Below, piece by piece: positions 2,365 to 6,378 of a stretch of 64,000 nucleotides of DNA. Numbering within the stretch: position 1 is the stretch's first letter; every line of letters begins with the position of its first letter. Source of the stretch: Escherichia coli (GTDB lineage Bacteria; Pseudomonadota; Gammaproteobacteria; Enterobacterales; Enterobacteriaceae); the NCBI RefSeq assembly GCF_013122565.1, contig NZ_CP053258.1; one strand, written 5' to 3'. Below the pieces are notes generated by a model. The model was not told where the DNA came from and searched no databases. It saw only the letters and a list, made by a program, of their open reading frames with translations. Made by a program: the position numbers and the translations under genes.

Positions 2365-3066
2365 CTAGACAGGCAAATCTATCAGCAAAGCGCGCAGTGG
2401 GGAATCGGCAACCAGCGTAATGTTAGCCTCGTCACGAATAAACGCCCCATCACCGCAGGTTAGCGCCGCTTTCTCTTCATGATGCGTAAGCGCATGAAAT
2501 TTCCCGTGAATCGATTGCAAATACGCGCGTGGCCCATGCAACTGGAAATTCGCACTTTCGCCTTTGTCGAGCACGATATGGTGCAGCCACACTTGTTGGC
2601 GTAATTGCAGGCTTCCCATCGCACCCTCTGGCGAGGCGATCAATTGCTGTTTGTCCATATTAAGCGCCAGCTTTTGAATCAGCGGATTCTCTCGCTGCGG
2701 GCAGGCATCTAGCCAAAGCTGCATTCGCGTTAACGGTTTGTCTTTGCTGAGATTGTGTTCGCTATAGCTGACACCCGGCTGGGTAGAGAGCAGCAACGCC
2801 TCACCGGCGCTCGCCTGAACATGATTGCCTTCGCTGTCGCGATACTCTGCTTCTCCATCCAGAATCACATTTAAAATATCGACTTTGGGATAGGTTCGCG
2901 GCTGAAAGGCAGCACCTGGGGCCAGCACTTCCTGGTTCAGCACGCGCAGGGAGGCATAGCCTAACAATTTCGGGTCGAAGTAGTGTCCAAAGGAAAAAGT
3001 ATACCGGGCCTGCAACCATCCGTAGTCTGCTTGTCCACACTGCCTGGCAGTTCGGGTAGTAATCAT
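2365..3066 (-). CDS. yhaK: Pirin-like bicupin protein, 233 aa
   Basis: 233-aa ORF; length and synteny between yhaJ and yhaL match K-12 yhaK. Confidence 0.85.
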   Translation of the reverse strand: MITTRTARQCGQADYGWLQARYTFSFGHYFDPKLLGYASLRVLNQEVLAPGAAFQPRTYPKVDILNVILDGEAEYRDSEGNHVQASAGEALLLSTQPGVSYSEHNLSKDKPLTRMQLWLDACPQRENPLIQKLALNMDKQQLIASPEGAMGSLQLRQQVWLHHIVLDKGESANFQLHGPRAYLQSIHGKFHALTHHEEKAALTCGDGAFIRDEANITLVADSPLRALLIDLPV

Positions 3067-3170: not shown

Positions 3171-4067
3171 ATGGCCAAAGAAAGGGCATTAACGCTGGAA
3201 GCACTACGGGTTATGGATGCGATCGATCGCCGGGGCAGTTTTGCGGCGGCGGCGGATGAGCTGGGACGCGTGCCTTCCGCACTTAGCTACACCATGCAAA
3301 AACTGGAAGAAGAGCTGGATGTGGTGCTGTTTGACCGCTCGGGCCATCGCACCAAATTCACCAATGTCGGGAGGATGTTGCTGGAGCGAGGGCGCGTTTT
3401 GCTGGAAGCCGCAGATAAACTGACTACCGATGCGGAAGCTCTCGCGCGCGGTTGGGAAACGCATCTCACCATTGTGACCGAAGCGCTGGTACCGACACCT
3501 GCCTTTTTCCCGTTAATTGACAAACTGGCGGCAAAAGCCAATACCCAACTGGCAGTCATCACCGAAGTGCTGGCGGGGGCATGGGAACGGCTGGAGCAGG
3601 GGCGGGCGGATATTGTTATCGCGCCGGATATGCATTTTCGCTCCTCGTCGGAGATCAACTCGCGCAAGCTCTATACGTTAATGAACGTCTACGTTGCCGC
3701 GCCTGATCACCCGATTCATCAGGAGCCGGAACCGTTATCTGAAGTGACGCGCGTGAAATATCGTGGAATTGCGGTAGCGGATACCGCTCGTGAGCGCCCG
3801 GTGTTGACCGTACAGCTGCTGGACAAACAGCCGCGCTTAACGGTGAGCACGATTGAAGATAAACGTCAGGCATTACTGGCGGGGCTTGGCGTGGCGACGA
3901 TGCCGTATCCGATGGTCGAAAAAGATATTGCGGAAGGGCGGTTGCGTGTCGTCAGCCCGGAATCGACCAGCGAGATCGATATTATTATGGCCTGGCGTCG
4001 TGACAGTATGGGGGAAGCGAAATCCTGGTGTCTGCGGGAAATTCCAAAGTTGTTCGCTGGAAAATAA
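3171..4067 (+). CDS. yhaJ: LysR-family transcriptional regulator, 298 aa
   Basis: 298-aa ORF with N-terminal HTH region (LTLEALRVMDAIDRRGSFAAAADELGRVPSALSYTMQKLEEEL) typical of LysR regulators; divergent from yhaK. Confidence 0.85.
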   Translation: MAKERALTLEALRVMDAIDRRGSFAAAADELGRVPSALSYTMQKLEEELDVVLFDRSGHRTKFTNVGRMLLERGRVLLEAADKLTTDAEALARGWETHLTIVTEALVPTPAFFPLIDKLAAKANTQLAVITEVLAGAWERLEQGRADIVIAPDMHFRSSSEINSRKLYTLMNVYVAAPDHPIHQEPEPLSEVTRVKYRGIAVADTARERPVLTVQLLDKQPRLTVSTIEDKRQALLAGLGVATMPYPMVEKDIAEGRLRVVSPESTSEIDIIMAWRRDSMGEAKSWCLREIPKLFAGK

Positions 4068-4071
4068 TCGA

Positions 4072-4098
4072 TTAAGCACCTTTCACAAGGTGCTTAAT
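4072..4098. terminator. Bidirectional stem-loop between convergent yhaJ and the DUF805 gene
   Basis: Inverted repeat ttaagcacct / aggtgcttaa around a short loop, flanked by A/T-rich sequence. Confidence 0.5.
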
Positions 4099-4100
4099 TA

Positions 4101-4469
4101 TTATTCCTGTTCCAGTTTTGGATCAGGTCCAAAGCGGTTTTCGCCTGGCGTACCCGCCTGGCAGTTAAAGACGATGATAATAAGCCAGCCGATAAACGGG
4201 ATTAAGAACAGCAGTGCCCACCACGCCGAGCGGTCGGTGTCGTGCAGGCGGCGGAACTGAACCGCCCACCACGGTAAAAACACCAGAATACCGTAGATTG
4301 TCGTCAGGATGCCTTCGCCACCAGCGCGTTGCCAGCCTAACATTTTATCCAGCAGCCCCAACACGAACGTGAAGATGATGTTGACCAGAATAAACATCCA
4401 GTACTCTTTGCGCCGCGCACGACCCCGGAAACCGACATAATTTTTTAGTACTTTCAGATACCAGTCCAT
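4101..4469 (-). CDS. DUF805-family inner membrane protein (YhaH/YhaI type), ~122 aa
   Basis: ORF-track frame 4101..4490 begins at a TTG; ATG at 4469 has a GAGG ribosome-binding site 7 nt upstream and gives MDWYLKVLKNY...; two predicted transmembrane helices. Confidence 0.75.
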   Translation of the reverse strand: MDWYLKVLKNYVGFRGRARRKEYWMFILVNIIFTFVLGLLDKMLGWQRAGGEGILTTIYGILVFLPWWAVQFRRLHDTDRSAWWALLFLIPFIGWLIIIVFNCQAGTPGENRFGPDPKLEQE

Positions 4470-4660
4470 TTTTGCCTCAATTTTGCTCAATCACTTGTTT
4501 TTAAAGCAGCAAATTAAGAATAGACGTGAATGAAATGGCAGTAAATATTCGCTCAATGAATTAATAAGGTGCTGTGAAGGATAAGGGCAAGCGCAAAATT
4601 GCCAGAAGCGCTACGTTTATCTGGTCTGCGCGGTCATGGCAACATATTGAATATAAATGT

Positions 4661-4715
4661 TTTGTAGGTTGGAGAAGGCGTTCACGCCGCATCCGACATT
4701 AATAACACGCACTTA
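4661..4715. repeat. REP element
   Basis: tgtaggttggagaaggcgttcacgccgcatccgaca matches the REP consensus core (gcgttcacgccgcatccg). Confidence 0.7.
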
Positions 4716-4751
4716 GCTAATAATCAGAGGCACCTCGTAAGGTGCCTTTTT

Positions 4752-5738
4752 TTAACCGAAGCGAACATCTCTTCCATGCGGTTCATCGAGATCCTGCCAC
4801 GGACCAATTGAAATAATCCCCGTAGGGTTGATGGTCTTATGGCTGCGGAAGTAATGATTACGGATGTGATCGAAATTGACTGTTTCGGCAATTCCCGGCA
4901 TCTGGTAGATATCACGCAGGAAGCCATACAGATTAAGGTAATCGCTGATGCGGTGCTTATCACACTTGAAGTGGGTCACATACACTGGATCAAAACGGAC
5001 CAGCGTGGTCCACAGGCGAATATCGGCTTCGGTTAGCTGGTTGCCGGTCAGGTAACGATGCTGACCTAAAATCTGCTCCAGTCGCGCCAGCGATTCAAAC
5101 ACTTTCTCCACCGCTTCGTCGTAGGCTTGCTGGCTGGTGGCAAAACCAGCTTTATACACGCCGTTGTTAACGGTGTCATAAATCCAGCCGTTAAGTTCGT
5201 CAATTTTCGTTTGCAGGGCTGGTGGGTAGTAATCACCCGCTTTCGCGCCCAGCGCATCAAACGCGGTATTAAACATGCGGATGATTTCTGCTGATTCGTT
5301 GCTGACGATGGTGTGGTTCTTTTTGTCCCACAGCACGGGCACAGTAACTCGTCCGCTGTAGTGTGGATCGGCGTGGAGATAAAGCTGATACAGAAATTCA
5401 TGTTGATAGAGCGTGTCTCCGGTTGCTCCCGGAAAACTGTCATCAAAGGTCCAGCCGTTTTCAAGCATCAGCGGGTTCACTACAGAAACGGAAATAAAGG
5501 GTTCCAGTCCTTTGAGTTTGCGCATGATCAGCGTGCGGTGCGCCCACGGGCAGGCGAGTGAAACATAGAGATGATAACGATCTTTCTCTGCGATAAAACC
5601 GCCTGTGCCAGTGGGGCCAGGAGCGCCATCGGCAGTGAGCCAGTTACGAAATGCGGAAGCTGAACGTTGAAATTTACCGCCGGTAGATTTGGTATCGTAC
5701 CAGGTGTCATGCCAGACGCCGTCAATCAGTTGACCCAT
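4752..5738 (-). CDS. yqjG: Glutathionyl-hydroquinone reductase (Xi-class GST), 328 aa
   Basis: Start taken at MGQLIDGVWHDTWYDT inside the 335-aa track ORF; length and sequence recognised as YqjG. Confidence 0.85.
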   Translation of the reverse strand: MGQLIDGVWHDTWYDTKSTGGKFQRSASAFRNWLTADGAPGPTGTGGFIAEKDRYHLYVSLACPWAHRTLIMRKLKGLEPFISVSVVNPLMLENGWTFDDSFPGATGDTLYQHEFLYQLYLHADPHYSGRVTVPVLWDKKNHTIVSNESAEIIRMFNTAFDALGAKAGDYYPPALQTKIDELNGWIYDTVNNGVYKAGFATSQQAYDEAVEKVFESLARLEQILGQHRYLTGNQLTEADIRLWTTLVRFDPVYVTHFKCDKHRISDYLNLYGFLRDIYQMPGIAETVNFDHIRNHYFRSHKTINPTGIISIGPWQDLDEPHGRDVRFG

Positions 5739-5756: not shown

Positions 5757-5788
5757 CAAAAACGAGGAGCGTTTCTCCTCGTTTTAAA
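5757..5788. terminator. Stem-loop flanked by A- and T-runs upstream of the yqjG start
   Basis: aaaaacgaggag cgtttc tcctcgtttt: perfect 7-bp stem with A-run before and T-run after. Confidence 0.45.
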
Positions 5789-5805
5789 ATTGCTGGCAAA
5801 CGAAA

Positions 5806-5912
5806 AACTGCCTGATGCGCTATGCTTTTCAGGCCTACGAGGTTTCTGCAATATATTGAATTTGCATGCTTTTGTAGGCCGGATAAGGCGTTCACGCCGC
5901 ATCCGGCATGAA
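5806..5912. repeat. RIP/BIME-like element: two REPs around an A/T-rich core
   Basis: gcctgatgcgctatgc...ggcctacgagg then tgcaatatattgaatttgcat then gtaggccggataaggcgttcacgccgcatccggca. Confidence 0.7.
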
Positions 5913-5985
5913 CAACGCGCACTTTGTCAACAATCTGAAACGAGGAGCTTCCTCCTCGTTTTTTATCGTTAAGTATAGCGCGTGC

Positions 5986-6378
5986 TTACCACTTTTTATT
6001 CAGCAGGCGGTCGATGCTATACGCGCCCGGACCGGTAATTGCCAGCAGCAGGAATCCGCCAGAAATTGTCAGGTTTTTCATGAACATCAGCGAGTTGACG
6101 CCTTCAGCAAAGTTGCTGTGAAATAAAAATGCCGTCAGCAGCGTAAAGCCCGCAGTAAACAGGGCTGTGGTGCGAGTCAGGAAACCGAACAGGACTGCCA
6201 GACCACCACCGAACTCAAGCAGAATCACCAGCGGCAGCATAAAACCCGGGACGCCCATCGCTTCCATATATTGTTGGGTACCCGCGTAGCCAGTAATTTT
6301 TCCCCAGCCTGCGGTAATAAACAGAATCGGCATTAAAATGCGCGCTACCAGTACACCAACATCTTCTAATTTTTTCAT
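5986..6378 (-). CDS. yqjF: DoxX-family inner membrane protein, 130 aa
   Basis: Start at MKKLEDVGVL inside the longer track ORF; hydrophobic; synteny. Confidence 0.8.
   Translation of the reverse strand: MKKLEDVGVLVARILMPILFITAGWGKITGYAGTQQYMEAMGVPGFMLPLVILLEFGGGLAVLFGFLTRTTALFTAGFTLLTAFLFHSNFAEGVNSLMFMKNLTISGGFLLLAITGPGAYSIDRLLNKKW

Follow-up and report, generated by a model that had tools for sequence, protein, structure and literature searches.

A single, intact yhaH gene between yhaJ and yqjG in Escherichia coli, in what is very probably the ancestral Escherichia arrangement

In E. coli K-12 MG1655, the interval between yqjG and yhaJ carries two tandem paralogues of the DUF805 family, yhaH (b3103) and yhaI (b3104), and the 64-kb stretch of E. 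coli DNA analysed here (the window) carries one such gene at this position and no other DUF805 gene along its length. The question raised by this locus is what the single gene represents, the original prediction having given the K-12 pair correctly and proposed that the gene is either one survivor of that pair or a recombinant hybrid of the two. The gene (4101–4469, minus strand) is convergent with yhaJ (3171–4067, plus strand), which encodes a LysR-type regulator with Pfam HTH_1 and LysR_substrate domains and is 98–99% identical in nucleotides to RefSeq yhaJ. It lies on the same strand as its upstream neighbour yqjG (4752–5738, minus strand), encoding a glutathionyl-hydroquinone reductase of the GST type (Pfam GST_N_2 and GST_C_2) that is also supported by RefSeq homologous regions. 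Beyond these genes lie the pirin family gene yhaK (2365–3066, minus strand) and the DoxX family gene yqjF (5986–6378, minus strand).

Translation from the ATG at 4469 gives a product of 122 aa from 369 nt of the minus strand, the length originally proposed, and direct reading of the sequence places a GAGG Shine-Dalgarno element (4475–4478, minus strand) 5 nt upstream of this codon. The program-made open reading frame begins at a TTG at 4490; RefSeq homologues use the start equivalent to ATG 4469 (369 nt, 122 aa). The protein matches the Pfam DUF805 profile (PF05656) over positions 1–111 of 111, with 120.9 bits against a cut-off of 25.7 (E = 4.6e-35). In protein alignments, 120 of the 121 residues of K-12 YhaH are identical to it (99%), as opposed to only 56% identity with K-12 YhaI, and the protein annotated as YhaH in strain VE-T9 (WP_001314179.1) is 100% identical, with 99% identity for the Nissle 1917 protein WP_001305122.1. 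Along its whole length the product is thus nearly identical to YhaH; it is more similar to YhaH than to YhaI and falls in the YhaH clade of a neighbour-joining tree, and its gene occupies the position and strand of yhaH between yhaJ and yqjG.

At the nucleotide level, four substitutions and the last codons distinguish the gene from K-12 yhaH. The four substitutions are synonymous, since the two proteins are identical across that stretch, and the sole protein difference is a C-terminus reading LEQE* in the window and LEP* in K-12, which arises because the boundary of the indel described below falls inside the last yhaH codons. Comparison with E. albertii, in which 25 codons differ synonymously and 5 non-synonymously, shows purifying selection on yhaH. 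Two window-specific synonymous changes equal the base found in yhaI and were considered as a trace of gene conversion; two such sites fit chance, and the candidate was dismissed.

Unequal crossing-over between tandem yhaH and yhaI could in principle produce one chimeric gene, since the paralogues retain conserved blocks (up to ~0.8 nucleotide identity, in the first 100 nt) in which they might recombine, and beyond this the gene count is all that favours such an event. The alignment to both paralogues revealed no chimeric breakpoint: each 45-nt window along the gene is 0.95–1.00 identical to yhaH, and none switches to yhaI, to either allele of which the identity per window is 0.24–0.82. The product follows YhaH from end to end, and neither boundary of the indel falls within the paralogous region, one being at the yhaJ stop codon and the other in the last yhaH codons. 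The hybrid half of the original prediction is therefore refuted and such an origin is hardly credible; the gene is an intact, ordinary yhaH orthologue and is not chimeric. It is just as far-fetched that the assembly merged two tandem paralogues, an error to which short-read assemblies are prone in tandem repeats, but one that would not affect paralogues whose proteins share only 56% identity and that have unique AT-rich DNA between them, and the single-gene junction recurs in more than 1,000 complete genomes and in other Escherichia species. An identical protein is already present in RefSeq, and the polymorphism is already represented in annotated public genomes.

YhaH is predicted to be an integral inner-membrane protein with three long hydrophobic helices. 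In its AlphaFold2 (AF2) model (mean pLDDT 77.5), a short N-terminal helix (residues 2–12) is followed by long helices at residues 20–44, 54–77, and 81–103, and an invariant RRLHD motif (residues 73–77) sits at the end of the second long helix, leading into the short loop before the third. Structural comparison of this model with Foldseek gave no PDB match below E = 1, a PDB sequence search gave only chance matches to cytochrome b (E about 0.09), and an NCBIfam search gave only sub-threshold matches. None of the papers found to mention DUF805 gives the family a function, and both yhaH and yhaI were still listed as uncharacterised in a 2024 survey of the E. coli K-12 “y-ome” (PMC11551758). In a published dataset, the three genes are listed as CpxR-modulated, with values of 1.9-fold for yhaH, 3.2-fold for yhaI (40.3 in parentheses), and 2.0-fold for yhaJ (Bury-Moné et al., 2009, Table 6; PMC2731931). 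Because yhaH and yhaI show Cpx-dependent induction in this dataset, a working guess is that YhaH is a small envelope-associated inner-membrane protein, with low confidence attached to any specific activity. A scan for CpxR boxes gave one site with a single mismatch in the AT-rich DNA upstream of K-12 yhaI and sites with two mismatches upstream of yhaH, all too weak to use.

The difference between the window and K-12 is concentrated at the junction of yhaJ and yhaH. By collinearity, a 40-nt segment of the window (4069–4108), made up of the yhaJ/yhaH spacer and the last codons and stop of yhaH, has as its K-12 counterpart 652 bp that carry yhaI; the bounds of this allele-specific segment are window position 4068, which equals position 1669 of the K-12 locus and lies one base past the yhaJ stop, and window position 4109, which equals position 2322. 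The K-12 segment consists of yhaI, a 241-nt AT-rich region upstream of yhaI, and two different hairpins, and its GC content of 0.373 (0.448 in the yhaI coding sequence and 0.278 in the yhaI–yhaH spacer) compares with ~0.52 in the flanking genes and the whole window. In the window, a repeat search found a perfect inverted repeat of 12 bp with a 4-nt loop (4071–4098, 100% complementary) between the convergent stop codons of yhaJ and yhaH. The 12–13 bp stem (4070–4099) is terminator-like on both strands, though with only moderately T-rich tails and only 4 G-C pairs, and is a candidate bidirectional terminator for the two genes.

K-12 YhaH (b3103, NP_417574.1) resembles its window counterpart in its upstream neighbour yqjG, its BIME-containing upstream spacer, and its strand, and differs on its 3′ side, where the window gene shares a hairpin with yhaJ and the K-12 gene has another hairpin, with yhaI beyond it. 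K-12 YhaI (b3104), for its part, has the Pfam family, the predicted size, and motifs such as GRARRKEYWMF and RRLHDTDRS in common with the window protein, but is set apart by its 56% identity, its separate deep clade, and its lower GC content, and its gene is absent from the window.

The junction sequence of the window, TTAAGCACCTTTCACAAGGTGCTTAA, is found, intact or split by a BIME, in E. albertii (locus L005), in the Escherichia lineages L006–L009, and in strains Nissle 1917 and VE-T9. The 40-nt hairpin segment is intact, as in the window, in L009, Nissle 1917, VE-T9, and LHM10-1; the hairpin is split by an inserted BIME in L005, L006, and L008, and in L007 yhaH has been lost and the hairpin kept. 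VE-T9, LHM10-1, and Nissle 1917 share with the window the order yhaJ, hairpin, yhaH, BIME, and yqjG. Next to this junction, the last 25 nt of yhaJ (4043–4067) are dimorphic across species boundaries, one haplotype, with the protein end FAGK, being common to the window, LHM10-1, VE-T9, E69, and E1V33, and the other, with ~6–9 differences, to K-12, Nissle, E. albertii, and two other lineages. This pattern in the aligned sequences suggests old recombination at the junction.

The comparison across E. coli genomes that the prediction called for was made with junction-specific megablast searches of 5,426 complete genomes, a set that lies outside Shigella and for which the counts are approximate, depending as they do on coverage of short queries. 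The K-12-type yhaJ–yhaI junction was found in 4,366 genomes (80.5%), and the remainder are mostly single-gene, with the Nissle-type single-gene junction in 1,008 genomes (18.6%), the window-type single-gene junction in 20 (0.4%), and an unclassified junction in about 32 (0.6%, by subtraction). A spread sample from a 1-kb search, in which 8 of 40 rows were single-gene, agrees with these proportions. Phylogroup B2 includes two of the single-gene strains, Nissle 1917 and ATCC 25922.

A wider survey of the family, based on a YhaJ scan with one genome per species, returned 80 Enterobacteriaceae loci extending 4 kb to either side of yhaJ; E. fergusonii and the main GTDB representative of E. coli are absent from these loci. 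Most of the 80 carry exactly one YhaH-like gene (70–90% identity) between yhaJ and yqjG, in the order yhaK, yhaJ, DUF805, yqjG, and yqjF, the one-gene genera including Salmonella, most Citrobacter, Klebsiella, Raoultella, Enterobacter, Leclercia, Lelliottia, and Atlantibacter. Kosakonia and Phytobacter have one copy that is more divergent. Five of the loci lack a DUF805 gene between yhaJ and the adjacent yqjG, and two DUF805 genes were seen outside E. coli only in Citrobacter sedlakii, Huaxiibacter, and Lelliottia WAP21. Within Escherichia, a single yhaH gene is present in E. albertii and in the divergent lineages L006, L008, and L009. The neighbour-joining tree groups the YhaH copies in a single clade, broadly in line with taxonomy, and places K-12 YhaI on a deep separate branch alongside the one Intestinirhabdus copy and the second copy of C. 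sedlakii; the YhaI-type cassettes of K-12, Intestinirhabdus, and C. sedlakii have similar GGGGC...GCCCC hairpins adjoining yhaJ.

Taken together, the gene at 4101–4469 is very probably an intact yhaH orthologue in the ancestral Escherichia arrangement, with the yhaI-bearing state of K-12 the later one. The single-gene state is most likely ancestral, and yhaI a later insertion, a direction of change that we infer from the junction, because deletion of yhaI could not recreate the hairpin sequence shared among these lineages. The one gene at most Enterobacteriaceae loci, the low GC content of the K-12 segment, and the tree are in line with this direction. The original prediction thus stands in so far as the gene corresponds to a K-12 paralogue, yhaH; calling it a survivor, however, implies a loss, and the evidence points the opposite way. 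In the ancestral state, a single hairpin common to the convergent yhaJ and yhaH genes would have lain between them, and a second paralogue would have been absent. The low-GC segment of 652 bp, bringing yhaI, the AT-rich region upstream of it, and hairpins of its own, would then have replaced the 40-nt junction, and its arrival would have rewritten the last yhaH codons from LEQE* to LEP*. Most likely, recombination in the conserved genes on either side brought the segment in, the donor already having a YhaI-type paralogue in the same position. Against this order of events, the occurrence of YhaI-type paralogues at the same position in several genera could reflect an ancient tandem pair that was repeatedly lost, and the dimorphic 3′ end of yhaJ shows that recombination has shuffled the junction.

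The opposite course, in which a K-12-like two-gene ancestor of the window lineage lost yhaI by deletion or, more plausibly, imported a single-gene junction from another Escherichia lineage by homologous recombination, is unlikely, though it has some support in the flanks. The yhaK, yhaJ, and yhaH genes of the window are 98–99% identical in nucleotides to those of K-12 and 96–98% identical to those of Nissle, the window-type junction is rare (20 of the 5,426 genomes), and the patch at the 3′ end of yhaJ and the variant of the hairpin are those of the divergent lineages E69 and E1V33, not those of K-12 or Nissle, as expected of an imported patch. A plain deletion, on the other hand, cannot restore the 40-nt hairpin junction common to the outgroups, and the junction bears no trace of yhaI or its AT-rich flanks; even if the loss took place, the allele would be of the ancestral type and the gene pure yhaH. 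Because the flanks are closer to K-12 while the junction haplotype matches E69 and E1V33, the window lineage may have retained the ancestral allele throughout or, having come from a yhaI-bearing ancestor, may have regained it by recombination.

Several observations were made on yhaI itself. A mobile origin was considered from tblastn searches of a plasmid collection and set aside, as the high-identity matches were mostly chromosome-sized records (4.8–4.9 Mb) filed as plasmids; matches on true plasmids in this collection were at most 53% identical. Within E. coli, yhaI is strongly dimorphic, the K-12 allele (L001, 1719–2075) and that of strain 2013C-3277 (L086/L087, 1390–1746) differing at 56 of 357 nt and 18 of 118 residues, with all of the residue differences between positions 6 and 104 and all but one from position 48 on. 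The yhaH genes adjoining these two alleles differ by only 4 nt. In strain 4621, yhaI has a premature stop.

The result reverses a K-12-centred assumption for the yhaJ–yqjG locus, at which the K-12 reference would represent the derived state. It presents yhaH as a conserved core gene and yhaI as an accessory, fast-varying paralogue, a division that is useful when choosing which DUF805 gene to study and when reading YhaJ and Cpx regulon data across strains, since strains without yhaI miss a gene in one published CpxR-modulated set. The polymorphism is an ordinary one of presence and absence, and involves neither a new kind of element nor a new mechanism. As the yhaI cassette would have replaced the hairpin common to yhaJ and yhaH, strains with and without yhaI would be expected to have different yhaJ transcript 3′ ends and different convergent transcription into them. 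EHEC have two genes at this locus, and UPEC belong to phylogroup B2, as do Nissle 1917 and ATCC 25922 with their single gene. YhaJ dosage is reported to differ between EHEC and UPEC for unexplained reasons, the promoters being identical (PMC7315121), and it is conceivable, albeit a long shot, that the yhaI indel contributes to this difference.

On the other side of yhaH, the 282-nt spacer that separates it from yqjG (4470–4751) contains the REP element that had been noted in this gap. It takes the form of a BIME-like element with two REP units in inverted orientation (4586–4728; direct-repeat families D1/D2), and these paired, inverted, intergenic units bear the repeated REP core AAGGCGTTCACGCCGCATCCG, which the window contains 6 times where 0 are expected. 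The pair is 73–83% identical to a second copy at 5795–5938. K-12 yhaH has likewise been described as “surrounded by repeat sites” (PMC11551758). A GC-rich hairpin with a terminator-like score (4728–4747) lies directly past the yqjG stop codon and is likely the yqjG terminator.

The spacer and BIME of the window are only 92.6–94.3% identical to those of VE-T9, LHM10-1, and Nissle 1917, and the yhaH–yqjG spacer accounts for most of the local divergence. Several substitutions in the REP units (4586–4700) are absent from VE-T9, Nissle, and K-12, for example GCCAGAAGCG...TTTATCTGGT replacing GCCAGATGCG...CTTATCTGGC, and these window-specific changes weaken the palindromes. The second BIME, between yqjG and yqjF (5786–5937), is not found in K-12, Nissle, or LHM10-1; it is present in 77 of the 5,426 complete E. 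coli genomes and, judged from spacer length, also in E. albertii and Escherichia sp. E1V33.

Overall, the window is collinear with K-12 positions 3,197,926–3,257,229 at a mean identity of 97.8%. It has no near-identical counterpart among the 5,426 complete E. coli genomes, in which identity reaches at most 97.3% over 3900–4900 and 99.0% over 34000–42000. At 27964–28454, 321 bp are missing relative to K-12, which removes the promoter and first 79 codons of the higB toxin gene; HigB residues 80–105 alone remain (27964–28041), and the intact higA antitoxin gene (28038–28454, 97% amino acid identity) is left as an orphan antitoxin. An insertion of 5.46 kb (10303–15760) separates exuR from exuT in the window, in place of the 102 bp of K-12, consisting of a four-gene alternate chaperone-usher fimbrial operon that encodes a PapD-like chaperone, a CS1-type major subunit, a TcfC-type usher, and a CblD-like initiator, and a fimbrial chaperone is annotated at this insertion in many other E. 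coli.
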